59,774 bases of DNA. Source: a virus. The position numbers and the translations under genes were made by a program. Shown here in pieces: positions 8,941 through 59,774 of this stretch. Position 1 is the first letter of the stretch. The number at the start of each line of letters is the position of its first letter. Below the pieces are notes generated by a model. The model saw only the letters and a program-made list of their open reading frames with translations. It was not told where the DNA came from and searched no databases. The DNA is taken from the IMG/VR virus record IMGVR_UViG_3300024259_000034. The stretch is one strand, 5' to 3'.

Positions 8941-8971
8941 GCTAACCTCCTTTAAAAATTAAGTAAAGACT

Positions 8972-9541: not shown

Positions 9542-9549
9542 AATCCTCC

Positions 9550-10209: not shown

Positions 10210-10218
10210 TTATACCCC

Positions 10219-10803: not shown

Positions 10804-10813
10804 GATAAATCTC

Positions 10814-12720: not shown

Positions 12721-12721
12721 A

Positions 12722-29010: not shown

Positions 29011-29386
29011 TATTTGCCCAGATTAAAATTCCTTCAGTGCCTTTTTCATCAATTATAAACACCCAAGCCTCCATACTATCTGCTAATCTTTTCCTGTTAA
29101 CTCTCCAATACCAGCTACCATCTGACATTAAATGATTTATGAATTTGGAATCAGTCTTATTGATACCATCACAACACCAACCATTGTGAGGCCCATAATA
29201 AAACCAACCGTACAATGCTTTTTGGAGGAGCTTGTCAGCATCAGACAGATTATCTGCTTCATCAAAATACTGCACTCTGCCATTTGCTACAGGGTGTTTG
29301 CAAGCATATCCTCCTGACTGATTTGTGTACTCTTCACCATCATCAGACAATACGATAATGCCCATTCTTCCGTTCGTATCAATCAA
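29003..29386 (-). CDS. hypothetical protein inserted between the portal and MuF genes
   Basis: 127-aa Trp/Cys-rich ORF. Confidence 0.5.
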   Translation of the reverse strand: MIDTNGRMGIIVLSDDGEEYTNQSGGYACKHPVANGRVQYFDEADNLSDADKLLQKALYGWFYYGPHNGWCCDGINKTDSKFINHLMSDGSWYWRVNRKRLADSMEAWVFIIDEKGTEGILIWANSD

Positions 29387-30693
29387 TTTTTAAGCCCCAT
29401 AAGTTCTTCTGCATCTTCAGGTTTTACTCCGGCTTTATCAAGATCCTCGAATATCTCCTCCTCCTCATCGGCTTCATCTTCTTCCAGTTCAGTTCCCAAT
29501 GGAATCATACTAGCCTGTACCAAAACAACATCACCATCATCGATGGAATCAAGACCGACCATTTCCCTTTTTTCGTTGATCGTGAGGAATTCTGACTCCT
29601 GGGCTCTCTTCCATTTTTCAGTCTGCCTTGGCTCAAGTGCCGGAACACCGTCTAACACAAAATCGAGTGATATGGCATCCTCGTTCGTGAATAGCCAGTT
29701 ATTCAATTCATCCCTCATGTAACTGAGCATATAGAATACAATCTTCTCCCAAAATGACTGCTCCGCTGTTTCATAATTGGCAAAGGTAGAATCACCGATA
29801 ATCCCAATGATCTGCGATGGAGTAAAAAAGCCTCTCGCGATTTGCCTGGACTTCTCACGACCGCCTTGAATAAAATCTAACTCCTGCATATTGTAACCGT
29901 AAGGCTTTGCTTCACCATCACCTTCAATAATCAGACTCTTGCCAGCGTTTTCTGCTCCTGATTGGTTTTCCTTCAGATCCGCCTTGAATCGTTCGTACTG
30001 TTTGTCACCCAAAGCCTGTTTGAACATGAACAGCATTCCCGGTCTGGCTTCATTCTCCAGCAGCTTTTTGTTCCATTCCGTCGCTTCGTTTGCAGTGTCG
30101 ATATTTTTAGCAGATGCCTCAACCGGAGATGCCCCCATAATATCATTCGTCGGGTGAAACATTTTCAAATGCAGCAGATCACATTGGCCAGTGACAGGAT
30201 CGATTTTCCAAACCTTTTTCGCGACTCCTTCTTCGTTCAGCTCATATCCTAAAAGTTCCCCGGTGTCGTTATGGACAATCACCTTTATTCTGTCAGGACG
30301 AATAACTCCGATCTCTTTTGGAACTCCGGCATTATCTCCAGTGGTCGGCGATATCCTTTCAGGGAAAGTGTTCCCGGCAATCATAATATAAGATACTGTC
30401 TCCAATATCAGAGCTGACCAGCCTTGCTGCGGATTCGGTCTTTTCAAAAGTTTGTTGACCGGATGTTCTGTGTTGATCTCGCGAGTGCCATCCTCCTTCT
30501 CATTGTAAACTTTCCAAGGCACAGAAGCGCAAGCCATCGCGACCTCATTAACACACCGATACATATCAACGCTTTTCAGATAACCTTCATCGGCGAAATT
30601 CTGGTAATTCCTTTCCGGCCATCTGGCGGTCCCGGTATTCGGAATATTCACCGTTGTCGATTTTTTCCTGAACCAGTTTGTCCAAAATGCCAT
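29383..30693 (-). CDS. portal protein (HK97-type)
   Basis: ~436 aa with Phage_portal-like sequence and an acidic C-terminus. The ATG at 30693 lies behind GAGAGGGAAG. Confidence 0.85.
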   Translation of the reverse strand: MAFWTNWFRKKSTTVNIPNTGTARWPERNYQNFADEGYLKSVDMYRCVNEVAMACASVPWKVYNEKEDGTREINTEHPVNKLLKRPNPQQGWSALILETVSYIMIAGNTFPERISPTTGDNAGVPKEIGVIRPDRIKVIVHNDTGELLGYELNEEGVAKKVWKIDPVTGQCDLLHLKMFHPTNDIMGASPVEASAKNIDTANEATEWNKKLLENEARPGMLFMFKQALGDKQYERFKADLKENQSGAENAGKSLIIEGDGEAKPYGYNMQELDFIQGGREKSRQIARGFFTPSQIIGIIGDSTFANYETAEQSFWEKIVFYMLSYMRDELNNWLFTNEDAISLDFVLDGVPALEPRQTEKWKRAQESEFLTINEKREMVGLDSIDDGDVVLVQASMIPLGTELEEDEADEEEEIFEDLDKAGVKPEDAEELMGLKN

Positions 30694-30790
30694 CACTTCC
30701 CTCTCTTAATTGGCTTCATCCTGACTCTTTTTTTTCTTCTCAGAGCTTGCAAGACCGCAGCTCTCGTTCTCTTTCTTCACCAACCCATTT

Positions 30791-31242: not shown

Positions 31243-31914
31243 CTAATAGATGTATTCGTGAATCCCATGATAAAAATCAAGCCAGGATGTGTTCTGGGTA
31301 TCTGCCCAACATCTAACCCATGCTTTCGTTCCTTTGTTTGATCTCCGATCCAGGAATTCAATTGGCGCTGCAGTAGCAAGACCGCCACCAGTTAGGAATC
31401 CAAACTCAGTCATTTCTTCTGCAGCAACCTTGTCGGGAAGATCGGCATACTCACCAGTAGCAACCTGCAGGAAATGATCTTGGGCATTGTTCTCATGATC
31501 AACCACCAAAAACTTATGGAAATCAAACTTATTATTCACCGCCTCAACTGGAGTGTCAGATGATCCAAGTATCTGAAGCCAATCGCCCCATTTATCATTC
31601 CCGGCATCAACTCGAAATGGATCTGGTAACAAAGTGATTCTGTCAGCCACATGGGTTTCACCAACAGCAACAGCAGCAGCTCCAAACCATTTTTCTCTGT
31701 TGTGTAAGTGCCTCTCAATTTCATAGATCGACTTGGCGGTTTTATCTCCATAAACTTCCATGTCGTCATTGAAACCAGTATCAAAAGCAGCCAGACCAGT
31801 TTTATTCAACAGGCGTTTTATCCAACCCATTGTCGTATCGTCTGGATGCCTATCAGTCGGCCCACCAAGTACAGGCTTTGCTCCGAAGATATTGCCGTCT
31901 TTTGTGTCTATCAT
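31243..31914 (-). CDS. hypothetical protein (possible virion protein)
   Basis: 223-aa ORF. Confidence 0.55.
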   Translation of the reverse strand: MIDTKDGNIFGAKPVLGGPTDRHPDDTTMGWIKRLLNKTGLAAFDTGFNDDMEVYGDKTAKSIYEIERHLHNREKWFGAAAVAVGETHVADRITLLPDPFRVDAGNDKWGDWLQILGSSDTPVEAVNNKFDFHKFLVVDHENNAQDHFLQVATGEYADLPDKVAAEEMTEFGFLTGGGLATAAPIEFLDRRSNKGTKAWVRCWADTQNTSWLDFYHGIHEYIY

Positions 31915-31920: not shown

Positions 31921-32103
31921 TCAGATGACAGCTCTGAAATACTGTCCTTGAATTATGAATAGAGATTTGCCAATCAGTTTGCCTCCGGACCTCATCTCTT
32001 TCGATTTCGCCAATGTCCCGAATATATTGCCATGCACCCCCGTTTTTCTTCGTTTCGCGGTAAACGCATTGCTATATCCTAAACCGTATTCTCCGACTCT
32101 CAT
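31921..32103 (-). CDS. small hypothetical protein
   Basis: Start trimmed to MRVGEYG, which forms a TAATG overlap with the upstream stop. Confidence 0.35.
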   Translation of the reverse strand: MRVGEYGLGYSNAFTAKRRKTGVHGNIFGTLAKSKEMRSGGKLIGKSLFIIQGQYFRAVI

Positions 32104-32531
32104 TAGCTGGTCCCGAGCCTGACTGTGCAGCAACCTCCACTATAATCGCCAGACTTAACTCCAAGACGATATTCGGCGGTTTCCGGATCTGCTGTTGCAG
32201 TAATACTCTCAGATCCTCCCTCATCTGCTGAAGCGGAATCGATTGTCCATTCAGCGACAGTTCGCCAATGGAAATCCGTATCCTCCTCCGGCATTCTTCT
32301 TTGTAGTGTGATTGTTCCCGAAAATACTGATCCCAACGCTGAAACTGCTCCGTAGGAATAGTAATCGGCTAGACCCGACAGGATATCGGATATAGCATCG
32401 CCGACTCTGATGCCGACGTTTAGGTGTTGATGACCTTGGACGGCTATCACCGACGTATAGCTGATATGTGCTGTAACCAGCAACTGTGCAGCTTTACTGC
32501 CGTCACCAATGACAAAAATCTCAGTTCCCAT
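32103..32531 (-). CDS. hypothetical protein (first gene after the glycosylation operon terminator)
   Basis: 142-aa ORF behind the RBS AAGAGGGAG, with a Ser/Thr/Asp-rich C-terminal half. Confidence 0.55.
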   Translation of the reverse strand: MGTEIFVIGDGSKAAQLLVTAHISYTSVIAVQGHQHLNVGIRVGDAISDILSGLADYYSYGAVSALGSVFSGTITLQRRMPEEDTDFHWRTVAEWTIDSASADEGGSESITATADPETAEYRLGVKSGDYSGGCCTVRLGTS

Positions 32532-32573: not shown

Positions 32574-32611
32574 AAAAAAAAAGTCAAACCCGGTTTTTCA
32601 TGGATTTGACT
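32574..32611 (-). terminator. intrinsic terminator after the Maf gene
   Basis: The minus strand reads AGTCAAA-16 nt-TTTGACT followed by T9. Confidence 0.6.
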
Positions 32612-32727: not shown

Positions 32728-35430
32728 TCAAGTTTTCTTCACTCTCATAATTGATTTCAGCCGATTCGCCTTCGATAAAGCGTCTGCGCTCTTCTCTTTC
32801 TGGCCATCTTCCTCATAATATTCGGCCAGCCTTCTCCATGCTACTTCATCGACTTTGAATTCTTCGACATAAATCTCTAACGCAGTGATCGCTTCATTCA
32901 ACAAACCAGCCTTATGATACAACCTTCCCAACGGCTTCAGGAAGAAATTGAACTCATCTGTCTTTGTCATGACCTCCTTGAAGATCACGAACGCTTTGTC
33001 GGTATCTCCAGTGCTGAGAAGGACAGTAGCATATTCCATTTTGTATTTAACCTCATCCGGAAACTGCTCAAGCAATTTGTCGTACATTTTCAGCGATTCT
33101 TTATCTCTTTTCACATGCCAGTATGCAGTCGCTAATCCCCACAGTGCCTCCGGTTTATCCGGTTTCAATTCATGGGCTTCCTCAAGCAATTTGACAGACT
33201 CCTCAAAACTCTTATCCTCTCTGCCTATTTTCTGGGACTCTTCGATTAGGTTCAGATACTTTATCATATCATCGCCTGTCTCCTTATCCCTTATTTCATA
33301 TTCTTTCTCTGCGTCGAGTATTGCCCTACCCCGCATTGCCAATGCTTCACTTTTAACCTCGATTGCACGGTCAATATCGCTGATACTAAAGTCTGTCAAT
33401 GGACGAGTATTCAAAACTTTCTTAGCATCCAGCAGCGGTCTGGCAAAATTCCCGGCATCAAAATAGGTTTGAGAATCCCGGAAGTGCAGTTCCTCAACCT
33501 CATACTGATGAGGGATTCCATTCTGCATTTTCTCCAGCGTTTTCAGCGTCTCCTCGTAAGTCTTTTTTAGGGACTTTGACACCTTTATCGCTTCCTCAAG
33601 GATCATCTTCGACCGATTCTGCCTGATCTTCAGATTCTTCTTTCCCTTTTTGGATAACAGAAATTCAGTATCTGACCTCACATTATGCGCTCTCAGTTCA
33701 ATTTCTCTGGACTTCTTGAATAGCCCCAACCTGACAAGCGGATTCTTATTCGCAGCTTTGTGTGCAGCATCAGTCAAGTCAAATGCCTCCTTCATTCTGA
33801 CAGCCAGTTCTGGCATAACAGCTTTAACCACTTCCTCTGACTTTGCTACTGCCTCTGCTGATTTCTCGATAATAAAATCCAGGTTATCAATATCTTCCTT
33901 CACCATCGGGATCGCCTGATCAACCAGATCATCTCCATCCGGTCGTTCTGTTAACAGCGGTTCAATCACAGTCTTATCAATCGGATCTCCCATATGCTCC
34001 TTTATCGCTTTTTTCAGGGACATCTGATCAATATGCTTCATCTTGGCTCCACCTTCCGTGGCATTAATCAAAGTCCTCTCATCTTTGTAACGTGCAAATA
34101 GATGCTCGAAATTCGTAATGAAGGTGAGCAGCCCAATATTGGTCATCACCAGATCACCATAATAGCCAGGAACATTTTGCATCAATCCCATGCTGTGATC
34201 CTGCGAGATCAGGCTTTTACTTCGTGGATCTTTCACGTTCCACCTGATTTCACCTTCCTTGGTTACACTAACATCTCCTCCGGAGTCAGCTTGCGCGATA
34301 TGGGACTTCTCTCCGTCGTATGCTAAATCCTGACCGATGATAATAATCGGATCGCAACCCATAGCAATCGCAGTTCCGAATATCATGTGAGAAACCGAAC
34401 CACCCTGATCGAGCGAACCTCTATCCTGCGTCAATCCGAATACCGTTCCTTCAGTGCCAGGATTCCATGAAACTGTAACAAATTTTGGTCCCTGCCATTC
34501 CTTCAAAAGCGGGGCATAAGATCGGTTCAAAGCAATCAGCGGAACGTCGCTATCCATCAGGCCCAGATAATGAGAATGATTCACTATCCCGAAATCGACT
34601 GAGCAAATGAAATCCGGACGGATATCGTAAGACAGCAAAACTCTCAGTGCCTGTCCAACCGCGATAATGACGAATCTCTTCTGAACCTCTTTGTCCATCA
34701 GCAAATGGATATTCTTAAACAGGGACGGACCAGTGCTGACCAGGATTGCCGGCTTCTTCTCAAATAGGTTTTGCAGCTCTGCAACTCCTCTGTGCTTTAT
34801 AACGTATGGCAGTGTCGCCATGTCATTATCAGCGATCTGTCCTCCAGCACTTTCGACTGTTCCGGTATTGCATTTCAACTGCGATATGGTGTCCAAAGCC
34901 ATCTTCGTGATGTCATAATAAACATCCTGCATTCTCGTGTAATCCTCACGGAAAACAAACTGCTGCTCAAGCATTTTGCTTTGCTCCATCCTCGACAGGA
35001 TATAGATCACATCCTCAATCGTTGGAGTGAAGATCAACCGATGCTCTTTGATGTGCTTATCGAATTTGCTCAGACTGAGCCCTTCTTTAATAATCCCGGC
35101 AACTGGCTCAATCACTATCACCTTATGTTGTTTGTCGCACTTCTTCAGAATCTCATAGGTCAGATACCCACAACCGAATCCAATAACAATCGAGATTGAA
35201 TTCTTGTGGAAATCCGAAATCTTCGCGATCCCTCGTGGAATCTCCTTCGGGTTGCTCATATCGTAAACAGATATCGGAGCTTGAGAAGTCTGGACAATCA
35301 TATTGCTGATCCCTTTCTCGTTCCGATGGACTTTGTACCAATCAACTGGCTCCTGCTTTTCGATCCAGGCATGTTGTTCCGGAACAGTTTCCTTAATCGC
35401 CCTCATATTGATCAACAGCTTTTTCGTCAT
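32728..35430 (-). CDS. maf: Maf-type (motility-associated factor, DUF115/MAF_flag10) nonulosonic-acid protein glycosyltransferase with C-terminal TPR repeats
   Basis: 900 aa. Core motifs: KKPAILVSTGPSLFKN...IIAVGQALRVLLSYDIRPDFICSVDFG...GGSVSHMIFGTAIAMGCDPIIIIGQDLAY...NATEGGAKM. The C-terminal ~200 aa are TPR-like. ATGA overlap with the upstream GNAT gene. Confidence 0.75.
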   Translation of the reverse strand: MTKKLLINMRAIKETVPEQHAWIEKQEPVDWYKVHRNEKGISNMIVQTSQAPISVYDMSNPKEIPRGIAKISDFHKNSISIVIGFGCGYLTYEILKKCDKQHKVIVIEPVAGIIKEGLSLSKFDKHIKEHRLIFTPTIEDVIYILSRMEQSKMLEQQFVFREDYTRMQDVYYDITKMALDTISQLKCNTGTVESAGGQIADNDMATLPYVIKHRGVAELQNLFEKKPAILVSTGPSLFKNIHLLMDKEVQKRFVIIAVGQALRVLLSYDIRPDFICSVDFGIVNHSHYLGLMDSDVPLIALNRSYAPLLKEWQGPKFVTVSWNPGTEGTVFGLTQDRGSLDQGGSVSHMIFGTAIAMGCDPIIIIGQDLAYDGEKSHIAQADSGGDVSVTKEGEIRWNVKDPRSKSLISQDHSMGLMQNVPGYYGDLVMTNIGLLTFITNFEHLFARYKDERTLINATEGGAKMKHIDQMSLKKAIKEHMGDPIDKTVIEPLLTERPDGDDLVDQAIPMVKEDIDNLDFIIEKSAEAVAKSEEVVKAVMPELAVRMKEAFDLTDAAHKAANKNPLVRLGLFKKSREIELRAHNVRSDTEFLLSKKGKKNLKIRQNRSKMILEEAIKVSKSLKKTYEETLKTLEKMQNGIPHQYEVEELHFRDSQTYFDAGNFARPLLDAKKVLNTRPLTDFSISDIDRAIEVKSEALAMRGRAILDAEKEYEIRDKETGDDMIKYLNLIEESQKIGREDKSFEESVKLLEEAHELKPDKPEALWGLATAYWHVKRDKESLKMYDKLLEQFPDEVKYKMEYATVLLSTGDTDKAFVIFKEVMTKTDEFNFFLKPLGRLYHKAGLLNEAITALEIYVEEFKVDEVAWRRLAEYYEEDGQKEKSADALSKANRLKSIMRVKKT

Positions 35431-35984
35431 AACAACTCCTCCGGTATCATTCCATGCAGTTTGTACCATCTTCTCTCAAGGATGGCGTATCGGTAAACGT
35501 CCTCAAAATGACCGTCCAAAAATACTTCCTGTTTCAGGACTCCTTCTCTCAACATTCCGACCTTCTCAGCAACTTTGGCCATACCCTTATTGCCTTTGGC
35601 AGTCCCAAGCCAGATTTTGTTCAGGCCGAGCTTATAGAATCCATGGTAAAAAAGCAGTCTAATAGCAGCAGTAGCCAGTCCTTTTGCCCAATATTGTTTA
35701 TCGAATATACAGGTAAATTCAGCACTCCGATTTAACCATGAGATGTCCTGTAACATCACTGAACCAGCTAATGATGGCCTTGCTGGAGTTATTTTCCAGA
35801 CCGACCATAGAATATTCCCTTTTGGGTCCGCTTTCTCAAACCTGATTTTCGAGAACAGTCCATGAGAATTGTACTTGCAAATCTCCTGATCGAAAAACCA
35901 AATCTCGCTCATCTCTCTGGCGATATCATCCATTGGCCGGATTTGAACATCCTCGGTTTCGTAGATTACGATTTCTTCAGCCAT
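35427..35984 (-). CDS. GNAT N-acetyltransferase (PseH/RimL-like)
   Basis: 185 aa with YWAKGLATAAIRLLFYHGF, the acetyl-CoA binding motif A. Confidence 0.7.
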   Translation of the reverse strand: MAEEIVIYETEDVQIRPMDDIAREMSEIWFFDQEICKYNSHGLFSKIRFEKADPKGNILWSVWKITPARPSLAGSVMLQDISWLNRSAEFTCIFDKQYWAKGLATAAIRLLFYHGFYKLGLNKIWLGTAKGNKGMAKVAEKVGMLREGVLKQEVFLDGHFEDVYRYAILERRWYKLHGMIPEELL

Positions 35985-36204
35985 CTATCATCTCATGAAA
36001 TTTTAACTCGAATGGAATCTTTTGCCCATGTCGCTTCCGCATTTGCTGTCCAATTAATTCTTCAGCACCTTTATCGAGAATCAAATCTCTTTCAAACATC
36101 TCTACCAAGCAGTCAACCAAGACTTCGGGAGTTATTCTCTCATCTTCATCTCCACCACAATGCTTTTCCCAAATGTACCTTATGATCGGTTCAACCTCGC
36201 TCAT
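35977..36204 (-). CDS. hypothetical protein
   Basis: 75-aa ORF within the operon. Confidence 0.45.
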   Translation of the reverse strand: MSEVEPIIRYIWEKHCGGDEDERITPEVLVDCLVEMFERDLILDKGAEELIGQQMRKRHGQKIPFELKFHEMIDG

Positions 36205-36404
36205 AATTTCTCCGGTGTTTCATCCAAACAAATAACCTTAAACAAATCACGTTCCCAATTTCTCAACTGGATAGTGACCTCTTTCAGCTTATCCTTATCA
36301 ATTACACTTGAGCTATCAGCCACTATATCACGGAGCAAATTCAAAGCTGCAGACACCTTTACCCTATCAGAGACATCGGTATATTCCTGCTCCGTCATAC
36401 TCAT
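36201..36404 (-). CDS. hypothetical protein
   Basis: 67-aa ORF within the operon. Confidence 0.45.
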   Translation of the reverse strand: MSMTEQEYTDVSDRVKVSAALNLLRDIVADSSSVIDKDKLKEVTIQLRNWERDLFKVICLDETPEKL

Positions 36405-37345
36405 AATTCCTCCAGCATTTTTCCTAATTCGTCACGAGTCAATTGCCACGGATTGTTTCCTGATCCAAAAGTCCAACGATGCTCAGTTGGAGTGCTGGCT
36501 TTCCGTATCGTAAAATGTTTCATACGTTTATCCGTATAAATACTCTCCTCCTCTGTAATTAGGAACTCGTGCAACTTCTCTTGACCACGCAGACCTATGT
36601 ATTTTATCTCCGCCTCCGGAGCAATAAATTTCGCGATGTCCATCACTGACAAAGATGGCATATTGGGAACGTAAATCTCACCGCCTTTCATGTCCTCTAT
36701 CCTGTCACAAATAAATGCAGCGACTTCCTTCACCGTTATCCAGAATCGAGTCATCTTCGGGTCAGTCACTGTCAAAATGCCGAATTGCGCTTGTCTCCTG
36801 AATAGCTCAATCACAGATCCATTTGAACCAAACACATTTCCATATCGAATGCACGAGAATCTTGGGTCCCTCCCTCCCGAATAAGTGTTGGCCGTAATCA
36901 TCAGATCCTCGGCACACTTCTTCGTCGCCCCATATAGCGTAGTTGGATAAACGGCTTTATCGGTGCTGATCTGCACGACTTTTTCAACCACATTCCGGAC
37001 AGCAGCGTACACAATATTCTCAGCTCCACCAACATTCGTTTCGATACACTCCAGAGGATTCTCTTCGGCGGTATCAATTCTCTTGATCGCCGCGCAGTGG
37101 ATAATAATATCTGTGCCGATCGATGCCATGATAACTCGCTCTCGATCTCTGACATCTCCGATCAGGTAGGCAATATTTTCCGTGTATCCTTCCTCAGTCA
37201 ATTGCGCTCTCAACTCTGCCTGTTTATGCTCAGACCGACTGAAGATCCGTATTCCTCGTGGTTTGTACTTGTGCATGATCGTTCTTACCAGCATACTCCC
37301 TAAAGTGCCGGTTCCTCCAGTAATCAGAATCTCTTTACCGTTCAT
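36401..37345 (-). CDS. UDP-GlcNAc 4,6-dehydratase, PseB/FlaA1/SpsM-like (short CapD type)
   Basis: ILITGGTGTLGS Rossmann motif, SRSEHKQ, ISTDKAVYPTTLYGATK (YxxxK). Confidence 0.75.
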   Translation of the reverse strand: MNGKEILITGGTGTLGSMLVRTIMHKYKPRGIRIFSRSEHKQAELRAQLTEEGYTENIAYLIGDVRDRERVIMASIGTDIIIHCAAIKRIDTAEENPLECIETNVGGAENIVYAAVRNVVEKVVQISTDKAVYPTTLYGATKKCAEDLMITANTYSGGRDPRFSCIRYGNVFGSNGSVIELFRRQAQFGILTVTDPKMTRFWITVKEVAAFICDRIEDMKGGEIYVPNMPSLSVMDIAKFIAPEAEIKYIGLRGQEKLHEFLITEEESIYTDKRMKHFTIRKASTPTEHRWTFGSGNNPWQLTRDELGKMLEEL

Positions 37346-37557
37346 TCAATCCTCGCTGTAATTGTCCCAAATTTTGTCTTTTTTTGATCGATGTACTTCC
37401 GATAAAACGAACACTCAAACCAATCTGTCATCTTATCTCGATAGCAATACGGACCCATTTGTTTCCAGCATTTAGTGCAAAAAACCGCAGCTCTGTATCC
37501 TTTCTTGATTTCAGAGACAGTGACCGCAGCAAACCTATGCTCACAGTCATCCTTCAT
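37342..37557 (-). CDS. small Cys-rich hypothetical protein
   Basis: 71-aa ORF within the operon. Confidence 0.45.
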   Translation of the reverse strand: MKDDCEHRFAAVTVSEIKKGYRAAVFCTKCWKQMGPYCYRDKMTDWFECSFYRKYIDQKKTKFGTITARIE

Positions 37558-38386
37558 TGATTACCTTTCTACCTCTCAATCCGGTACCGGGATCGGCTTT
37601 CAAATACCGCTCAGTTTGCTGCTTCCTGATAATATCGAAATTGGGTGTTCCCCATGCCTCTTCTTGAACCCTGATACCAGTAATCGCACTCTCTAAAAAT
37701 GAAGCAGACCAGCAATGACCATGTACCGATTCCGCTCCTTTGTTGTCATCAAGATCAAAATGCGCCTCGATATATTCTGCTCCGGCTGCGACTGCTCCAT
37801 AAATCACATTCCTGTTTTTTGTATGATCAGACCAGCCCATTTTAAAACAATCTGGATATCGTTGACAAAAATCCTCAATCACCGCCAGATTGCATTCTTT
37901 TACTGCTGCAGGATACTTGGAAACACAGTGCATAATCGTCAGATCGATCTCATCTTCCTGAATCTCAGCCAACATTTCGAACAACTCTGTTTCATCCATC
38001 AGACCGATTGAAACAAACAGTGGTTTTTTGATCACCAATGCAGTTCTGTATAACTCAACCAGACCGGCTTCATGACTGGCTATCTTCAAGAAATCTGAAT
38101 ACTGATGATACATCGACATCCACGTTGGATCAAAAAACGAATATCCAATATTGATATGCTTCGCTATGGCATATTGTTTCATCACCGGGAGCCAGTGGGG
38201 TTTCAACTGTCTCTCCTCTGCCTGTCGATAATTCGGATGTGAGTATTCATAAAGCTGGTTGGCAGTGTAAAGCTGAAACTTCACTCCCCAACATCCAATA
38301 TCTTTCGCGACACTGATCAGATTCAGCGCACGGTCTAACTCTCCGTTGTGGTTGCTTCCCACTTCGGCAATAAATCTCGTTTCCAT
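37547..38386 (-). CDS. NeuB-family nonulosonic acid synthase (PseI/LegI/SpsE-like), no SAF domain
   Basis: FIAEVGSNHNGELDRALNLISVAKDIGCWGVKFQ. At 279 aa it is a TIM barrel only. Confidence 0.75.
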   Translation of the reverse strand: METRFIAEVGSNHNGELDRALNLISVAKDIGCWGVKFQLYTANQLYEYSHPNYRQAEERQLKPHWLPVMKQYAIAKHINIGYSFFDPTWMSMYHQYSDFLKIASHEAGLVELYRTALVIKKPLFVSIGLMDETELFEMLAEIQEDEIDLTIMHCVSKYPAAVKECNLAVIEDFCQRYPDCFKMGWSDHTKNRNVIYGAVAAGAEYIEAHFDLDDNKGAESVHGHCWSASFLESAITGIRVQEEAWGTPNFDIIRKQQTERYLKADPGTGLRGRKVINEG

Positions 38387-38883
38387 TCTTTCCTCGTTAT
38401 CGACGCTACATGGCTACTGTAGAACGTCTTGTTTTTCCAGAATCGATCAGTCAAGAAACCTTCATGGCGGAAACCCTGCTTTTTCCAGAATTTCCAGTTC
38501 TGTGTGGTGGCAATGACCTCGATAAAAATACAGTTCAGATTCGCGAGATTGAATCCGACCTCAAGCAATTTCCTGACAGCCTGTGTTCCATATCCCTGCT
38601 TCTGATAATCCGGTTTTACCAATAAACCCATCTCAGCAGTTCGATTCACAGCATCAATTTTATCAAGACCGCAGTAACCGATAAAATTAAACAACTTGAA
38701 TTCATTCCCATCATAAATGAAATAATACCGCTCCCGGTCTGACATATTCTTCACCCATTGCTCCTGACCCCAACCTTTTGCAGTCAGATCATCAGCTCTC
38801 AAGGAAAGCATCGATTCATTCCGCCATTGAGCGATCAGATCCAGTTCCGGCTGTTTGACTGTCATCTTCTCCAGCTTGATCAT
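38335..38883 (-). CDS. GNAT N-acetyltransferase
   Basis: 182 aa with YQKQGYGTQAVRKLLEVGF (motif A). Confidence 0.7.
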   Translation of the reverse strand: MIKLEKMTVKQPELDLIAQWRNESMLSLRADDLTAKGWGQEQWVKNMSDRERYYFIYDGNEFKLFNFIGYCGLDKIDAVNRTAEMGLLVKPDYQKQGYGTQAVRKLLEVGFNLANLNCIFIEVIATTQNWKFWKKQGFRHEGFLTDRFWKNKTFYSSHVASITRKEWKRDLLPKWEATTTES

Positions 38884-40202
38884 CTCAACTCCTCCACGTT
38901 CTCAGTGACCTTCTCAAACGCATTGATAATATCATCCAAATCTCCTCGGTTCGTTGGTGGCGCCAGATACAAGTGCAGGAATAGATCGTCTTTCCAGAGC
39001 TTTTCGACAACTGGAAGCGGTTTAATAAATCTATCAGCACCAATCGAATGATACCGCACTTCTTTATCTGGATTCTTGAACCGATCATCAAACAAAGGCA
39101 TCCTGTAAATCGGCTTGATATATCCACCACCAATCCTGACTCCCTCACTTTCTCGACCTCTCATCGGCTGTAATTCTGCCTTAACAGCTTCCAAAAATCG
39201 ATCTCGATGTAATTCAAGATAATCTTGATCGTAAAAAAACGCCTGGACATAGAACGTATGCGTACAGGATTCACGAATCGGCGCCGGGGTAATGAAAGGT
39301 ATGTTATTCAACCGAACTGCAAGATAATCGGCATTTTCGTTCCTTTTACCGATAAAGAAATCCAACTTCTTCAACTGCTCCTGCAGGATCGCTGCTTGAA
39401 TTTCGGTCATCCTCAGGTTCATTCCCCACAATTCTTTGTGCTTTTCCAGAACTGGTCGATGCTCCAAGTTCATCTCAGCGTCATTAATTACCGCCTCCGC
39501 ATGGTTTATGATCAACCGGCATCTCTCTGCCAACTCATCATCTATTGCAGTAATCATCCCGCCTTCTCCGGCTGTCATATGCTTGCCCTGAGTAAAACTG
39601 AAGCAACCGATATCTCCCAAATCCCCGGTATACAAATTCTCTGGATTTCCCATCAACCATGCTCCCGGTGCTTGCGCTGCATCTTCGATCAGATATATGC
39701 CTTTTTCCTGTGCAAATGCGATCAGCCTTTTATCAAATGGCTGGCCAAATAAATCGACGGCAATAATCGCTTTCGTATGTTCAGTGATCTTCGATTCCAC
39801 CGATTCCACATCGAGACAGAAATAATCTCTCTCAACATCTGCAAAAACTGGGGTAGCTCCACAAAGCATTGGAGCAGTAGCACTGCAAGCCATCGAATAT
39901 GGCGTGACAATCACTTCATTTCCCGGCTTTAATCCAATTGCCAGACAAGCGACATGCAAAGCGGAAGTGCAGCTATTCACAGCAATCGCGTGTTTGTGCT
40001 GAAACCTCTCCTTCCACATTTCCTCAAACTTCTGGACTTCAGTTCCGCCTCGATACTTCTGCCAGTTTCCTCGGTATCCAGACAGCATCTGAGATTCCAT
40101 AACTCTCTGGGCTGCTGATGCTTCCTCATACCCGATACAAGCCTGATTCGGGAACAGCTCTGTTCTGATCGGCTCACCGCCGTTGATTGCTAGTTTTGCC
40201 AC
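38880..40202 (-). CDS. DegT/DnrJ/EryC1/StrS-family sugar aminotransferase (PseC/LegC-like)
   Basis: 440 aa with the PLP-lysine motif CFSFTQGKHMTAGEGG. Confidence 0.8.
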   Translation of the reverse strand: MAKLAINGGEPIRTELFPNQACIGYEEASAAQRVMESQMLSGYRGNWQKYRGGTEVQKFEEMWKERFQHKHAIAVNSCTSALHVACLAIGLKPGNEVIVTPYSMACSATAPMLCGATPVFADVERDYFCLDVESVESKITEHTKAIIAVDLFGQPFDKRLIAFAQEKGIYLIEDAAQAPGAWLMGNPENLYTGDLGDIGCFSFTQGKHMTAGEGGMITAIDDELAERCRLIINHAEAVINDAEMNLEHRPVLEKHKELWGMNLRMTEIQAAILQEQLKKLDFFIGKRNENADYLAVRLNNIPFITPAPIRESCTHTFYVQAFFYDQDYLELHRDRFLEAVKAELQPMRGRESEGVRIGGGYIKPIYRMPLFDDRFKNPDKEVRYHSIGADRFIKPLPVVEKLWKDDLFLHLYLAPPTNRGDLDDIINAFEKVTENVEELR

Positions 40203-40212
40203 GCCATTCTCC

Positions 40213-41148
40213 TTATTTATTCGATGTCAACTTCTTCTGCAGATTCACTGCTGCATCGGCTCCCAACAAAGTCAGGAAATCCACGCCGTTAGTGCTTCCG
40301 CCTTTACCGTTTCCACCAATCACAATGGAAGGGACCAGTTGTGCTTTGCCAAGACTTCCGTACAGCGTCGTCATGATCTTCACCTGAGCCTCGATCTCTT
40401 TATCAAAAACATACTTAGGATCCAGTGCATTCTTCGCTGCTTTCTTCCTGGCTGCTGCCATAACCATCAAACCTTCAGCAATCTTACGCTGTTTGGCCAG
40501 GATCTCAATCTGCTTCAATTTCGCCTGTCGCTCAAGCTCAACCTCCTGACTCGCATTAATCACAGCAACTTCTTTGCGCTGTTCGGCACTGATTCTGGCT
40601 TTCTCTTTATCCTTCAGGGATTCAGCTCTCTGATCTTCCAAAGTTTTCAGACCTAACGCTTTGGCAGTTTCGGCTTCCTGTTGGGCTTTCTTCAGGTTCT
40701 GCCGTGCAAGTGCTTCATCTGCAGCCGATTTTTTCTGGCTTTCAAGACGTTCCAAAACCTTTTCTTCATAAACCACATCGATAATGGAAGCATCAACAAC
40801 CGTGATCCCATAATCAGTCAGAGGAGATTTCGTTCGCATATCCTTGCCGTCATCAGCTTTCCGCTTTCTTATGGTCACTCTCTGGCGGTCAGACAACTCA
40901 TCTTTGGTCTTTGCTCTTGATCCGGCTTTATCAATCTGCTGGTCAACAACAAAAATACCATTAATCATCTGGTCACGGAAATCCATACTCAACTGGCCAT
41001 TTCCACCAGAATAATGCTCTTCAACCGACATCAATCTGGCTGACGCTTTGGCAGTCTCTTCGGTCGCTCTCACCATCACATTTGAAACCAGAGTATCCTG
41101 ATCTCCAAATTCCCGGTGGATCTTCAGAAGCGGTTTTCCTGCCGGCAT
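40213..41148 (-). CDS. SPFH/band-7 (flotillin-like) protein, C-terminal part
   Basis: 311 aa with a coiled-coil EA-rich region. The upstream frame stays open to within the end of 41150..41500. Confidence 0.55.
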   Translation of the reverse strand: MPAGKPLLKIHREFGDQDTLVSNVMVRATEETAKASARLMSVEEHYSGGNGQLSMDFRDQMINGIFVVDQQIDKAGSRAKTKDELSDRQRVTIRKRKADDGKDMRTKSPLTDYGITVVDASIIDVVYEEKVLERLESQKKSAADEALARQNLKKAQQEAETAKALGLKTLEDQRAESLKDKEKARISAEQRKEVAVINASQEVELERQAKLKQIEILAKQRKIAEGLMVMAAARKKAAKNALDPKYVFDKEIEAQVKIMTTLYGSLGKAQLVPSIVIGGNGKGGSTNGVDFLTLLGADAAVNLQKKLTSNK

Positions 41149-41149
41149 T

Positions 41150-41500
41150 CTAAATCTGGCAACACCCTTCGCTCCGCCTGTCGTAGTGTCCAGAAATCAA
41201 TCTGGGGTTCGGCTCCAATTTTGAGGATGCCTTCGCGCTCGGTGTCCCTGTAAAGTTAACAGCAATCACCCTTTTGTAAATCGTGGGCGTTCCAAACAGT
41301 CTCATGTACGGTCCCGGCGTATCAATTACCGACATCGTTCCACCAACACTCTGCAGCACAATCCTCTCATCGGCATCGTTGAAATCGACGGTCTTGATTC
41401 CAAGTACCAAAAGCACAATAAACAAAATTACCGCTGGCACTCCGATTTTTACCATCTTTCGGAATGGCTTAGGAATCATACCTTCAATTGTTTCAGTCAT
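41150..41500 (-). CDS. TM anchor plus start of an SPFH domain (possibly the N-terminal part of a split gene)
   Basis: N-terminal TM helix (VPAVILFIVLLVLGI) followed by DERIVLQSVGGTMSVIDTPGPYMRLFG, an SPFH-like start. Confidence 0.5.
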   Translation of the reverse strand: MTETIEGMIPKPFRKMVKIGVPAVILFIVLLVLGIKTVDFNDADERIVLQSVGGTMSVIDTPGPYMRLFGTPTIYKRVIAVNFTGTPSAKASSKLEPNPRLISGHYDRRSEGCCQI

Positions 41501-41518
41501 CTTTAAACTCCTTCAATT

Positions 41519-41902
41519 TTAATTTAACAAAATCCTCAACTTCAGTCCCTGGCAGTGAAAGAACCTTGGGAAGAAACTCCCGCTTCTATGGAGATCAATC
41601 AGCGTTCCCTCAATCTCCGAAAGGCTGGAATCCGCCCCTTTCTGGCGGTCCAGTTCAATCAAGCCATCGATTAACCGATTCACAATGCTATCCGGATCCT
41701 CGATTAGCTTCCTCTGCTGGATCTTCTTTTCTTTCTCGCTTTTTGCCAGTTCGACAATCCAAAAGAAAACGCCAGCACCCATAACAACAAATATAACATT
41801 CACCACCATCGATAGTGCAATCATCACGATTTCCAAATTGCAAGTGTAAACGAACCTGCGATTATCAAAATCCACAGGATTACATAAAGCACCTTGTGCC
41901 AT
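41519..41902 (-). CDS. small membrane protein
   Basis: One TM helix (MIALSMVVNVIFVVMGAGVFFWIV). The start is ambiguous (41902 or 41824). Confidence 0.45.
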   Translation of the reverse strand: MAQGALCNPVDFDNRRFVYTCNLEIVMIALSMVVNVIFVVMGAGVFFWIVELAKSEKEKKIQQRKLIEDPDSIVNRLIDGLIELDRQKGADSSLSEIEGTLIDLHRSGSFFPRFFHCQGLKLRILLN

Positions 41903-41936
41903 CTTTTCGTCAAGACTCCTTCAACTACTTTCATCA

Positions 41937-42884
41937 TCATCCCTCCAAAACTTTATGGACAGCAATCGCATCTTCCGCATCACATTTCAGATCCTCTGAG
42001 CCGTCCAGGTATTTGACTGCGTTTTCCAACATAAAATGCAGATTCCATCCCATGTTCGTTGCCTGAGTTTTCGGCATTCCCAATTGCGGATAGCTGCCGT
42101 AAATACTTTCGTTCTCTATCGGATAAGTCGCCAATCTAGTTCCGTACTGGTAAAACTGGAACCTTCCGACTGAGCTGATTACATCTATCTCGAACGTGTA
42201 GGCTTTCCGGCCATCGACTCCGGTGAAAACCACATAAGGGCATCTCCCATACACAAAATCAGTTGTCAGGGTCGGGTCATCGCCATCTCTATCATAAATC
42301 GGCGTATGTTTTGGCGCTGCTCCCTCCAATGCACCAAACCACCAATTGCAGAGATCAATAGCGTGAGATCCATCATGCTTCAATCCTCGACCGTAAATCA
42401 CTCTCGCGTTGTAAATCTCAACTCCAGGCTTACTCAGTTTCTCATAAACTCCCTGATGGAATGCTTCAAATCTTCTGGAGTAATCGACCATTAGCGGGAC
42501 TCCAGCAGCCTCACAATAACCGTGCATCCACATCGCTTCATTAAGATCCATGCCAAACGGCTTCTCACAGATAATCAACTTCGGTTTCATATCAGCACAA
42601 TGCTTCACAACCTCCAGATGGAATTTCGTCGGCACTGCCACGATCATAATATCTGCCTCTGAAGTCACAATTGACGACCAGCCACAATCCCATTTCTCTC
42701 CGGCTTCCTTTGCTTTCCTATGATCCTCATCAAAAATGCTCACCAGATCGATTCTCTTGTGCGCCCAACATGCGTGTCCGTGGGTTAGAGGGACAGTCCG
42801 TTTATCCTTTTTGTCCTTTGACTCTGGCTTCAACGCTCCAATGGAACCGGCTCCGATAATCGTTGCTGTGTAATTTTTCATCAT
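41937..42884 (-). CDS. Gfo/Idh/MocA-family NAD(P) oxidoreductase
   Basis: TIIGAGSIGA Rossmann motif plus the ICEKPF motif. Confidence 0.75.
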   Translation of the reverse strand: MMKNYTATIIGAGSIGALKPESKDKKDKRTVPLTHGHACWAHKRIDLVSIFDEDHRKAKEAGEKWDCGWSSIVTSEADIMIVAVPTKFHLEVVKHCADMKPKLIICEKPFGMDLNEAMWMHGYCEAAGVPLMVDYSRRFEAFHQGVYEKLSKPGVEIYNARVIYGRGLKHDGSHAIDLCNWWFGALEGAAPKHTPIYDRDGDDPTLTTDFVYGRCPYVVFTGVDGRKAYTFEIDVISSVGRFQFYQYGTRLATYPIENESIYGSYPQLGMPKTQATNMGWNLHFMLENAVKYLDGSEDLKCDAEDAIAVHKVLEG

Positions 42885-43132
42885 CCTCTCTTTTTTTCAT
42901 TGGAAGTCAAACGCCGATCAAATAGTCCCACCTTCTTCTGGTAATACGCCTCGATCTTTTTCAATGCAGGGACTTCCTGATTCAACAGATTCGCATAATC
43001 GACACATGCCTGAACCATTGCATCCTGGGCTTCATAGGCATAAACAATAAACTCCTGATCATCAATAAACGTGACTCTGTATGGTCTGGCTGCAGTGTTG
43101 TTCACATCTTCTCCCAAAGATAATGAGCGCAA
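42881..43132 (-). CDS. hypothetical protein
   Basis: 83-aa ORF. Confidence 0.45.
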   Translation of the reverse strand: MRSLSLGEDVNNTAARPYRVTFIDDQEFIVYAYEAQDAMVQACVDYANLLNQEVPALKKIEAYYQKKVGLFDRRLTSNEKKRG

Positions 43133-43293
43133 TGCCTCGGGTAATCCTTACCTTGCCAAACATCGATTATCGTTTTGGCATCCGTCGCAATTCCAGCAGT
43201 ATCTCTTTGCCATAGCTCAAAAACTTCAACCAGCCTTTCAAGTGTCACTGTTTTAGTCGGCTGTGGTGGAGCTGTCGGTGATTCTTGTGTCAT
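43102..43293 (-). CDS. hypothetical protein
   Basis: 63-aa ORF with an ATGA overlap to the cytidylyltransferase gene. Confidence 0.4.
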   Translation of the reverse strand: MTQESPTAPPQPTKTVTLERLVEVFELWQRDTAGIATDAKTIIDVWQGKDYPRHCAHYLWEKM

Positions 43294-44024
43294 CCTTCCT
43301 CCGGTGCTTTGGTTTTCACACTGCGATTTAATTCCAACAGGTTCGGATGTGCCTTCAAAAACCTGACAACATCCAATGCAGTAAATCCAGGCGTGGATCT
43401 GAAGTGATGCCAGATGATATCAATCAACGCATAATCCTCTGGCGTATCTAACGTAATGCGGAGATCAGGCCATTTCAACTCTCCTTTTGCTTCGATATTA
43501 GCACATCGAAATGACGAGTCTTGCATGATATTCCAACCGACATGGATCGGATTCAGGATCTTATTCCTGATTTGATCTAATGCGGTAAAGGAGTAAACTT
43601 GCACATCTAACCCATCAGGAAACGACCTGATCCCAACATTGGAGGCATAATCAACCGCTTTATCACTGATGAATCGCTCGATCACATCATCCATAATATC
43701 CGGATCGATCAATGGACAGTCAGCGGTGATCTCAACAATGACATCAATTCCATATTCTTTCGCACACCGATAAATCCTTTCCAAAACATTATCCGGATCG
43801 CCATCGAACAAATAGATTCCGGCGCCAGCTTCATGGGCAACGGGAATCAGTTCGATATTTTTCTCAGACAAATAAGTTGCTACTATGGGGTTTAGACACC
43901 AGAACGAATTTCTGACTCTCTCGATCACACGCTGTAAGGCAGGTTTTCCGGCAAGCGATAGCATGGCTTTTCCCGGCAATCGGGTACTCTCCATGCGACA
44001 CTGAATGATTGGCACGATTCTCAT
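43290..44024 (-). CDS. CMP-sugar cytidylyltransferase (SpsF/PseF/NeuA-like, CTP_transf_3)
   Basis: IVPIIQCRMESTRLPGKAM matches the IQARxxSxRLPGK motif of the SpsF type. Confidence 0.7.
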   Translation of the reverse strand: MRIVPIIQCRMESTRLPGKAMLSLAGKPALQRVIERVRNSFWCLNPIVATYLSEKNIELIPVAHEAGAGIYLFDGDPDNVLERIYRCAKEYGIDVIVEITADCPLIDPDIMDDVIERFISDKAVDYASNVGIRSFPDGLDVQVYSFTALDQIRNKILNPIHVGWNIMQDSSFRCANIEAKGELKWPDLRITLDTPEDYALIDIIWHHFRSTPGFTALDVVRFLKAHPNLLELNRSVKTKAPEEG

Positions 44025-47093: not shown

Positions 47094-47351
47094 CTACGGA
47101 GTGTCAGAAATGCCACAGTCGAATCCCAGGAATTCGTCAACTTCATTTAACCCATTGGTATCACTCAGAATCTGCTCCCTTGTTTTCGGCTTTAGCTCAA
47201 TCCTATTAATCACTCCACCAGCGCACAAAAACTCTTCAACCGCCATCTCTAAGAATGATCTGGATGGATTAAATGCAGCGAGTCCTCTTTTCCGGCCTCT
47301 TTTCATCATTTTCGATTCGATTATATCAACATTATCAGCTTTGCCCATCAC
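47094..47351 (-). CDS. hypothetical protein
   Basis: 85-aa ORF. Confidence 0.5.
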   Translation of the reverse strand: MMGKADNVDIIESKMMKRGRKRGLAAFNPSRSFLEMAVEEFLCAGGVINRIELKPKTREQILSDTNGLNEVDEFLGFDCGISDTP

Positions 47352-47863
47352 TCCTCCAAAATGAATAGGGTTTCGTTTTCGGGTATGTTCACCATCTTAA
47401 AGTCATACCATATTTTGATTTTGATCTTTTCCCACAAATACGGTTTGATCTTTAGATCCTGACGATATTCCGGATCGATGTTCAACCGATAGGATCTGTT
47501 AGGATGCAGCATTAATGTCGCCTGAATCGTCGCTAGATCCATTGGACTGCTTTCCTTATGGATTGTATAAGTCATTCCGTCGAGATGGTCAAGAACTCGA
47601 TTGTGTTGAACTGGAATCGAGGAGTACAAATAAATCTTCTGCGCCGGATTCCAGGCCTTCAATCTTTTTATTATAGTCAAAGTTCTTTCTGGATCGAGCA
47701 TCGGTTCGCCACCAGTTATCAAAACCATATCGTAATGGCCTATCGTCTTTAAATCTTCAGGCTTTATACAATATCCCTGATCCATAATCCTCGGCACTTT
47801 GTTGACGCAAAACTCGCAATCTCGAATGCAGTCAAACGTCGTGATCAGTCTCGCGATCTTCAT
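47348..47863 (-). CDS. small radical-SAM protein (QueE/NrdG-sized)
   Basis: CIRDCEFC is a CxxxCxxC cluster motif, and LITGGEPML is a SAM-binding motif. The ATG at 47863 forms an ATGA overlap. Confidence 0.7.
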   Translation of the reverse strand: MKIARLITTFDCIRDCEFCVNKVPRIMDQGYCIKPEDLKTIGHYDMVLITGGEPMLDPERTLTIIKRLKAWNPAQKIYLYSSIPVQHNRVLDHLDGMTYTIHKESSPMDLATIQATLMLHPNRSYRLNIDPEYRQDLKIKPYLWEKIKIKIWYDFKMVNIPENETLFILEE

Positions 47864-48045
47864 ACAACCCATCCGTGAAATTCCGTGTGCGCTGCAAAAC
47901 TGACGGCATCGATCTCTTTTTCAAACTCCTCCTGATCAATGGCCTCGGTTTGACAAAAATCGTCAATCGTTTCTTTTACACATCCGCAGAACTCCAGGCA
48001 GTTTTCAATCTCTCCCTGCAGGAGTGCTTTTTGTTCTTCGGTCAT
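47860..48045 (-). CDS. hypothetical protein
   Basis: 61-aa ORF. Confidence 0.45.
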   Translation of the reverse strand: MTEEQKALLQGEIENCLEFCGCVKETIDDFCQTEAIDQEEFEKEIDAVSFAAHTEFHGWVV

Positions 48046-59764: not shown

Positions 59765-59774
59765 GACTCTCCTT
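59648..59774. repeat. Terminal direct repeat, right copy (identical to 1..127)
   Basis: Exact 127-nt identity with the left end. Confidence 0.95.

Follow-up and report, generated by a model that had tools for sequence, protein, structure and literature searches.

What does a tailed phage gain from genes whose cellular relatives adjoin flagellin genes, when no flagellin is found in its own genome? This question is raised by a minus-strand operon at positions 32728-44024 of the IMG/VR virus record IMGVR_UViG_3300024259_000034, a stretch of 59,774 nt that was analysed at its full length and is called the window below. The operon unites a Maf-type glycosyltransferase, extended at its C terminus by a domain of tetratricopeptide repeats (TPR), with enzymes related to those that make nonulosonic acids, among them pseudaminic acid (Pse) and legionaminic acid (Leg). 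We regard it as highly probable that the operon encodes donor-sugar synthesis together with Maf-type protein glycosylation. It is best read as a flagellin-glycosylation island of bacterial origin that was captured and fixed in a phage clade, and it is a hallmark of a large uncultured clade rather than the property of a single odd phage. As to the acceptor, we lean, without firmness, towards one or more virion proteins in preference to host flagellin. The broader claim that phages of the whole clade make their own Pse-like sugar and use a retargeted Maf-TPR to O-glycosylate their own virion proteins is put forward a shade more tentatively still.

By sequence and by predicted fold, the 900-aa product of the last gene is a true Maf, as an earlier note, made from the letters of this DNA, had proposed. 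Residues 217-385 match PF01973 (Maf/DUF115, now MptE-like) with 143.8 bits against a gathering cut-off of 34.6, and TPR families match residues 750-900. In the AlphaFold2 model (predicted local distance difference test score, pLDDT, 89.8; predicted template modelling score, pTM, 0.82), ten helices between residues 720 and 891 form five TPR repeats. Comparison of this model with the PDB by Foldseek gave the Maf structure 5MU5 of Magnetospirillum magneticum AMB-1 as the top match (E = 6.8e-16, probability 1.0, 727 aligned columns, TM-score 0.54 when normalised to target length), with TPR proteins next; a profile search likewise found 5MU5 (E = 6e-12). The GPS, PDF and GQDL (G-x-D-L) motifs and His377 of the phage protein can be aligned with 5MU5; across 32 homologues they are unchanged, and so are Asp273 (in PDF), Asp279 and Asp368 (in GQDL). 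An Asp is reportedly essential in Maf-1 (D247), Maf-2 (D261) and the AMB-1 Maf. The two proteins differ in that 5MU5 is 13% identical to the phage Maf and has no TPR array. With the NCBIfam PseD model the phage protein scored 102 bits (E = 2.4e-29), under the cut-off of 670; this cut-off is narrow, because the flagellin-locus Maf of cultured Deferribacter fails it too (211 bits).

In the model, the architecture is the Maf-1-like 'bipartite' one, with the TPR domain in the same polypeptide as the catalytic core. The Shewanella oneidensis Maf-1 is a self-sufficient 'bipartite' flagellin pseudaminyltransferase, whose C-terminal TPR domain binds flagellin and is indispensable (bioRxiv 10.1101/2023.12.03.569772). 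Compared by architecture, both proteins consist of an N-terminal domain, a MAF_flag10/DUF115 GT-A-like core and a C-terminal TPR domain, and both are encoded beside a Pse-related pathway. Maf-1 needs no GlfM adaptor; in the phage no FliS-like gene was detected, and GlfM was not seen alongside the operon, the small neighbouring ORFs not having been tested for a GlfM fold. The difference lies in the setting: Maf-1 belongs to a flagellar island and acts on FlaA/FlaB, whereas neither flagellin nor FliS was detected in the phage genome.

The genes that accompany the Maf gene are listed below in the direction of transcription, with open reading frames (ORFs) of small size included.

43290..44024, minus strand: cytidylyltransferase, SpsF/KdsB-like, 244 aa (PF02348 CTP_transf_3, E = 3.4e-20)
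42881..43293, minus strand: two overlapping small ORFs, 63 and 83 aa (no Pfam match; none detected in relatives)
41937..42884, minus strand: Gfo/Idh/MocA NAD(P)-dependent sugar oxidoreductase, 315 aa (PF01408, E = 1e-10)
41150..41902, minus strand: two small ORFs, 127 and 116 aa (no Pfam or PHROG match; no tblastn match in related loci)
40213..41148, minus strand: SPFH/Band-7-like protein, 311 aa (Band_7, E = 4.6e-5; phrog_11908, E = 7e-32)
38880..40202, minus strand: DegT-family pyridoxal phosphate (PLP) aminotransferase, PseC-like, 440 aa (PF01041, E = 2.1e-79)
38335..38883, minus strand: GNAT acetyltransferase 1, candidate PseH, 182 aa (PF00583, E = 8e-15)
37547..38386, minus strand: NeuB-family nonulosonate synthase, 279 aa (PF03102, E = 1.5e-36)
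37342..37557, minus strand: small ORF, 71 aa (no Pfam match)
36401..37345, minus strand: PseB/FlaA1-type UDP-GlcNAc 4,6-dehydratase, 314 aa (PF02719 Polysacc_synt_2, E = 4.1e-84)
35977..36404, minus strand: two small ORFs, 67 and 75 aa, translationally coupled by ATGA overlaps (no Pfam match)
35427..35984, minus strand: GNAT acetyltransferase 2 (Acetyltransf_3), 185 aa (PF13302, E = 5e-15)
32728..35430, minus strand: Maf-type glycosyltransferase with C-terminal TPR domain, 900 aa (PF01973, E = 5.6e-42)
32574..32611, minus strand: intrinsic terminator closing the operon (11-bp stem, 10-nt loop, U9)

All eight enzymes called in the earlier note were found as ORFs at these places, each in the family given for it there, and the five profiles it had named (PF01973, PF03102, PF02348, PF01041 and PF02719) all matched. 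Chance can be excluded, since the E-values lie far beyond it and the same gene order is seen in ~60 independent viral contigs. The description of a single, translationally coupled minus-strand operon also holds: of the junctions, seven take the form of ATGA overlaps, four have overlaps of 8-52 nt, and the remaining gaps measure 1-34 nt. The Maf start at 35430, which agrees with the public gene call, forms such an ATGA overlap with the preceding GNAT 2 gene. For the hairpin and T9 tract that had been taken as the terminator, reading of the sequence and RNA folding agree (-17.7 kcal/mol, z = -2.8 vs. shuffles); a consensus terminator scan did not list it, probably because its loop of 10 nt exceeds the 8-nt maximum of the scanner. 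The operon ends ~2 kb upstream of the portal gene, and thus just upstream of the head genes as claimed. Beyond what had been described, the SPFH/Band-7-like gene and seven small ORFs lie inside the operon.

To assign the pathway enzymes to types, we used NCBIfam models with curated equivalog cut-offs. The dehydratase, which carries the NAD-binding motif TGGTGTLG and an STDK motif, scored 340 bits with the PseB model (E = 8e-102; cut-off 408) vs. 56 bits with LegB. For the aminotransferase, with the SFxxxK PLP motif present as SFTQGK (lysine at residue 207), PseC gave the highest NCBIfam score, 204 bits (cut-off 423), and LegC gave 159. The synthase came out nearly level, with 123 bits for PseI (cut-off 340) vs. 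120 for NeuB, both under the cut-offs. It is 279 aa long and has no SAF (antifreeze-like) domain. Homologues of it in ~30 viral loci of the clade are mostly ~270-300 aa and also without this C-terminal domain of canonical NeuB/PseI. The PseH model gave 41 bits for GNAT 1 and 23 bits for GNAT 2, under a cut-off of 93 and compared with 176 bits for the Deferribacter PseH.

The cytidylyltransferase gave no match to the PseF model, only to KdsB-type models, and it matches PDB entry 6oew, 'Cytidylyltransferase', over its full length (E = 1.6e-27). In the canonical Pse locus of Deferribacter abyssi, an enzyme 38% identical to it is encoded between PseC and PseG and is likewise without a PseF match. 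Since an SpsF/KdsB-like enzyme is thus found in a genuine Pse locus, this type serves as CMP-Pse synthetase there, and the phage enzyme is a candidate CMP-nonulosonate synthetase. In the Gfo/Idh/MocA protein the EKP motif and His174 are invariant in a 30-sequence alignment, and its gene adjoins the cytidylyltransferase gene throughout the clade; as for its specific function, single-sequence and profile searches of the PDB returned generic sugar dehydrogenases only.

No PseG was matched by Pfam or NCBIfam among the operon proteins scanned. A jackhmmer search seeded with the Deferribacter PseG identified six PseG genes in cellular loci but gave no match in the window or across 158 viral loci (2.3 Mb in total, the set used also for flagellin and FliS). 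Pfam and NCBIfam scans detected neither a LegG/NeuC-type hydrolysing 2-epimerase nor a PtmE-type nucleotidyltransferase. These matches suggest that the nonulosonate is likely of Pse type rather than of Leg type. Of the 'Pse/Leg-type' set proposed earlier, the Pse side is therefore the one that stands, by the dehydratase and aminotransferase scores, and the Leg side falls away with the LegB-type enzyme, the epimerase and PtmE. The related claim that the phage carries donor synthesis is upheld for the enzyme families; it does not extend to a full set, as PseG is absent and all enzymes stay under their equivalog cut-offs.

The 311-aa protein was considered as a hidden PseG and ruled out, as it matches SPFH/Band 7 and is not conserved in the clade; its gene is probably an insert without relation to sugar chemistry. 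In the window this gene comes after two small ORFs of no assigned family (stretch 40213-41902). Membrane-scaffold genes stand in the sugar operon of relatives too, namely an SPFH/Band-7 gene in locus L004 (6331-7239) and a PspA/IM30 gene in locus L008 (448-1116).

Taken from the enzyme families, the route to the sugar would run as follows. The PseB-like dehydratase, the PseC-like aminotransferase and one GNAT would convert UDP-GlcNAc into a nucleotide-linked 2,4-diacetamido-2,4,6-trideoxy-hexose. Release of the sugar from UDP would fall to the host, or else to a phage protein not yet recognised, the phage being without PseG. The short NeuB-like synthase would then condense the free sugar with phosphoenolpyruvate, and the SpsF/KdsB-like cytidylyltransferase would form the CMP-sugar. 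The Gfo/Idh/MocA enzyme and the second GNAT probably tailor the sugar, by analogy with ElaA, a Gfo/Idh/MocA enzyme that oxidises C8 of CMP-legionaminic acid (PMC13656337). Finally, Maf would attach the sugar to Ser/Thr of whichever protein its C-terminal TPR domain, with five repeats, holds, in the way that Shewanella Maf-1 modifies flagellin. In the reading we favour, the acceptor would no longer be flagellin but one or several structural proteins of the phage, and progeny virions would bear a coat of acidic nine-carbon sugar.

To place the operon among viruses, genomic contexts were drawn from ENA, NCBI, JGI and IMG/VR. The order cytidylyltransferase, Gfo, DegT, (GNAT), NeuB, PseB, GNAT, Maf-TPR was found in ~60 viral contigs at 30-65% identity, and the intact and syntenic state of the ORFs over this range indicates purifying selection. 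A protein search with Maf gave a single exact copy, followed by at least 120 clusters that hold Maf-TPR proteins of 850-1010 aa at 36-43% identity, many from contigs of 48-65 kb. Used as the query of an exhaustive HMMER search, the N-terminal 500 residues gave 378 representatives (50%-identity clusters) at E <= 1e-30, more than 100 of which are full-length proteins of the phage Maf-TPR type. No other member of the module is as constant as Maf-TPR; with few exceptions the related loci have GNAT 2 upstream of it, mostly as its direct neighbour. The majority of contigs have the operon converging on genes for a Mu-type baseplate and fibres; the others have TerL and portal after it. A scan with baseplate J showed that relatives of at least 42% identity carry fibre genes, and also Maf wherever enough downstream DNA was available; more distant Mu-like phages of 37-42 kb have neither Maf nor fibre genes.

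A sister viral lineage in IMG/VR (L095, L097, L098 and L101) encodes the cytidylyltransferase, Gfo, DegT, PseB and a Maf without TPR domain. This shorter Maf, of ~589-617 aa (617 in L097, 589 in L098), lies directly before TerL; a 73-aa ORF comes after it in L097. TerL is followed in the lineage by an ORF of 669-749 aa matching portal and/or Mu-F. Searches of BFVD gave further DUF115/MptE-like proteins that are structurally near the Maf core at 12-16% identity (A0A0F7L3H2, A0A6J5PG89, A0A6J7XC21, A0A5B8IGA8 and others), carried by uncultured Caudovirales, a marine virus and the giant virus ChoanoV1. Viruses may encode Maf-like enzymes more widely than the literature lets one expect. Among phages in GenBank (50,697 records), megablast of the operon and tblastn of Maf gave no match, and NeuB gave only three weak ones, one of them a bacterial (Moritella viscosa) record. 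In PHROGs, neither Maf nor any of the synthase, cytidylyltransferase and oxidoreductase has a family.

With an exact direct terminal repeat of 127 bp (window 1-127 and 59648-59774), the window is the complete genome of a tailed phage, either circularly closed or terminally redundant; its unique sequence amounts to ~59,647 bp. Contigs of ~60 kb with the same genome and the same junctions were assembled independently in several samples. The genes found for portal, a Mu-F-like protein, prohead protease, HK97-type capsid, sheath, tube, tape measure, Mu-type baseplate and tail fibre, together with TerS/TerL and the terminal repeat, confirm that this is phage DNA, as had been said of it. Capsid is encoded at 24454-25833 and a 157-aa ORF at 23971-24444; sheath lies at 18984-20498, tube at 18589-18975 and fibre proteins at 10219-10803 and 9550-10209. 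An ERF recombinase and an exonuclease are also encoded, almost all of the genes, which specify ~90 proteins, are on one strand, and the window holds no tRNA gene. GC content along the operon is even (0.44-0.46). We found no integrase, transposase or repressor in this genome, and the clade apparently consists of virulent myophages with a Mu-like tail. The closest cultured relatives by sheath or capsid protein, at most 40% identical, are Mu-like phages of Proteobacteria and Azospirillum phage Cd. Labels of metagenome-assembled genomes (MAGs) to which near-identical family members were assigned are inconsistent, from Alphaproteobacteria to WWE3 and Woesearchaeota, and we read these bacterial and archaeal labels as mis-binning. 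The nearest cellular gene donors are Thermodesulfobacteriota-like, which gives only a hint of the host.

The nearest cellular proteins to the phage Maf are Maf-TPR proteins of 1009-1070 aa. One of them, in locus L020 on a Desulfarculia MAG chromosome (OY759352), stands after flagellin, GT2 and PseB, in that order; in its N-terminal two-thirds it shares 32% identity with the phage Maf, in the TPR domain ~30%, and the PseB proteins share 52%. Locus L022 (MAG299) has, in this order, flagellin, FliS, Maf-TPR and Gfo/Idh/MocA. Locus L043, of the cultured Deferribacter abyssi, has PseB, PseC, cytidylyltransferase, PseG, PseH, PseI and Maf with flagellin genes flanking, and served as a control in which PseB, PseC, PseG, PseH and PseI all exceed the equivalog cut-offs. 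The phage loci have in common with these islands PseB, DegT, the SpsF/KdsB-like cytidylyltransferase, a NeuB-type synthase and Maf, and with L022 also Gfo/Idh/MocA. They differ in having no flagellin, FliS or PseG, in a second GNAT and a SAF-less synthase, and in the divergence of their enzymes. In L020, the stretch 2342-12964 is a multi-transferase flagellin glycosylation island with two Mafs (556 aa and the 1009-aa Maf-TPR), a GT1-like protein with TPR repeats, GT2, PseB and a 563-aa flagellin. The PseB and Maf-TPR of this lineage are the closest clearly chromosomal (cellular) matches to the phage versions.

A hidden Markov model (HMM) picked up flagellins in 16 of the loci with a cellular label and a Maf relative, but in neither the window nor any of the 158 viral loci; FliS, sought with jackhmmer over the same loci, was found in cellular relatives only. 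When every window ORF was aligned to flagellin with hhalign, the highest probability was 1.2%. A phage-encoded flagellin-like acceptor was accordingly rejected, the flagellin HMM, tblastn and hhalign having found none.

Which protein, then, would the phage Maf modify? In several lineages the Maf gene lies directly before TerL/portal or abuts tail-fibre genes. We count this for an acceptor other than flagellin, along with the lack of any flagellin, FliS, integrase or repressor found and the Maf-like domains in other uncultured Caudovirales. In our weighing, the size of the module and its deep conservation also speak for a virion target. PseG has been lost systematically, which agrees with hosts making Pse already; a second flagellin transferase would be redundant in such a host.

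Several results weigh against this preference for a virion protein and against a self-made Pse-like sugar. Neither compositional nor homology approaches identified an acceptor. The Ser/Thr content of tail proteins (sheath, baseplate and others), compared both as the overall fraction and in the densest 30-residue window, is equal in Maf-bearing phages and Maf-less relatives. ORFs adjoining Maf are not conserved. The ~30% identity of the TPR domain to that of a flagellin-locus bacterial Maf leaves host flagellin as the simplest acceptor. On the side of the donor, every pathway enzyme scores under its curated equivalog cut-off, PseG is missing from the window and the 158 viral loci, and the synthase has no SAF domain; activity and product therefore remain predictions.

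Local Ser/Thr-rich patches, e.g. sheath residues 141-170, proved uninformative as a compositional signal of glycosylation. ORFs 32103-32531 and 31243-31914, suggested as acceptors in the earlier note, have no Pfam/PHROG match, and relatives arranged alike from Maf to portal hold no homologue of them, so that neither can be a clade-wide acceptor.

The strongest competing explanation keeps the same enzymology and leaves the acceptor as host flagellin, re-glycosylated when newly made during infection. We consider it a serious possibility, if a less probable one than a virion acceptor. Such a modification could mask a flagellar receptor against superinfection or loss of progeny on debris, or could keep assembly and motility going after host shut-off. 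Every cellular relative found adjoins flagellin genes, and the phage protein has retained the whole Maf-1 architecture, with a TPR domain ~30% identical to that of a flagellin-locus Maf; in Maf-1 this domain binds flagellin directly and without an adaptor (bioRxiv 10.1101/2023.12.03.569772). Phage proteins reportedly recognise flagellar Pse-type glycans, e.g. FlaGrab (PMC7099621). Capture of an island without retargeting is also the simplest evolutionary step. Yet no lysogeny genes were found, and a virulent phage would gain little by altering a filament built mostly before infection. Retention of the 11-kb module across a deeply diverged clade and its sister lineage points to a benefit intrinsic to the phage, and the loss of PseG suggests hosts that make Pse and hence already glycosylate their own flagellin.

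Either acceptor would be of consequence. The 11-kb module takes up ~18% of the genome, and a near-complete predicted pathway of Pse type with an acceptor-selecting Maf-TPR has been kept in more than 100 diverged phage lineages without flagellin. If virion proteins are modified, as we favour, this would be the first virus-encoded nonulosonic-acid protein glycosylation and the first non-flagellin Maf acceptor. It would represent a new virion modification, an acidic, sialic-acid-like coat, with possible effects on how stable the particles are and how they adsorb, on their recognition by the immune system or lectins and on phage engineering, and would offer glyco-engineers a Maf of new, portable acceptor specificity. 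If host flagellin is modified instead, a flagellar glycan would for the first time be seen to be rewritten under the direction of a phage, as a new form of receptor masking or host take-over. Experimental access is given by Pse-producing reconstitution hosts and by pan-Pse antibodies, the latter reported in bioRxiv 10.1101/2025.07.13.664564. The absence of PseG raises the question of host dependence vs. an unrecognised hydrolase, and the SAF-less synthase that of a short form working unaided.

A further explanation, which we hold to be unlikely, is that the operon mainly supplies or alters the CMP-nonulosonate pool for a non-protein glycan (lipopolysaccharide, capsule or S-layer) or another class of acceptor, with Maf glycosylation secondary. 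The prophage enzymes EpaA/EpaB of Acinetobacter baumannii, which turn Pse into 8-epi-Pse in the capsule (PMC12053666), provide a precedent, as does the tailoring of CMP-legionaminic acid by the Gfo/Idh/MocA enzyme ElaA (PMC13656337). An extra oxidoreductase and an extra GNAT, with no PseG, also look more like modifying or boosting than like a self-sufficient pathway. On the other hand, the module is most constant in its Maf-TPR gene, which in the window is translationally coupled to the GNAT gene before it; the operon holds no glycosyltransferase for polysaccharides, no flippase and no polymerase, and none of these was found in the rest of the genome; and the characterised Mafs are cytoplasmic protein O-glycosyltransferases. 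EpaA/EpaB resemble the phage operon in being phage-borne enzymes acting on pseudaminic acid, in the CTP_transf_3 domain of EpaA and in the oxidoreductase partner. They differ in being two tailoring genes of temperate prophages that need host psaA-F and modify capsule polysaccharide, and their system is without synthase, dehydratase, aminotransferase or Maf.

With slightly less probability still, the sugar could be legionaminic acid or another non-Pse nonulosonate. The near-equal PseI and NeuB scores of the synthase, the lack of any enzyme at its equivalog cut-off and the absence of PseG would allow this, and other donors are reportedly accepted by some Mafs (bioRxiv 10.1101/2020.06.03.131540 and PMC11339370). 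The dehydratase, however, is clearly of the PseB/FlaA1 type by its 340 vs. 56 bits and its STDK motif, the aminotransferase scores higher with PseC than with LegC, and neither the LegG/NeuC-type 2-epimerase nor the PtmE-type nucleotidyltransferase was detected. That a bacterial island was mis-assembled onto phage DNA, or is decaying cargo without function, is very improbable: some MAG-binned copies do bear inconsistent bacterial and archaeal labels, but the repeated independent assembly of the same ~60-kb genome and junctions, the 127-bp terminal repeat, the uniform GC and the intact syntenic ORFs in ~60 viral contigs speak against it.

We know of no nonulosonic acid and no Maf-type enzyme in virus-encoded virion glycosylation. 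Maf enzymes are known to us only as flagellin-specific cytoplasmic O-glycosyltransferases of bacteria, and nonulosonic acids on prokaryotic viruses, to our knowledge, only where the host supplies them. The earlier note was aware of no characterised Maf-dependent nonulosonic-acid protein glycosylation in a tailed phage; a full-text literature search, of incomplete coverage, also found none, nor any description of a phage-encoded Maf or of a complete nonulosonate pathway in a phage. The sequences are public in IMG/VR and in MAGs, without interpretation. What is new here, in our view, is a Maf/Pse protein-glycosylation system in a viral setting without flagellin, for which EpaA/EpaB are the nearest precedent. 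Mycobacteriophage capsids and tail tubes are decorated by phage-encoded glycosyltransferases. Giant DNA viruses, too, glycosylate their virions with machinery of their own (reviewed in PMC4691112). Both are functional analogies for a virion acceptor of the phage Maf, with other sugars and other transferase families.

Outside the operon, the window showed some further features. TerS/TerL (4410-6498, minus strand) lie ~23 kb from the portal gene (29383-30696, minus strand), at the far end of the structural module; since the relatives L074 and L090 read Maf, TerL, portal, this genome is rearranged. Between the tail-fibre genes and TerS, 7196-8554 (minus strand) encodes a 452-aa fusion of a phage DAM-like domain (PF22555) with a phage GNAT-like domain (PF22559), which may be a Mom-like DNA-modification enzyme. 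An endolysin-like gene (26622-27278, minus strand; phrog_465, E = 3e-31) stands between the Mu-F-like head-morphogenesis gene and the prohead protease gene, an odd site for a lysis gene. Early or accessory regions hold a small Fer4_12 (radical-SAM-activase-like) ORF, an HNH endonuclease and a RadC-like JAB protein (47348-47872, 49344-49811 and 126-596, minus strand), and the Fer4_12 iron-sulfur protein is compatible with the anoxic habitats hinted at by some MAG labels, e.g. Desulforudis and Thermodesulfobacteriota.

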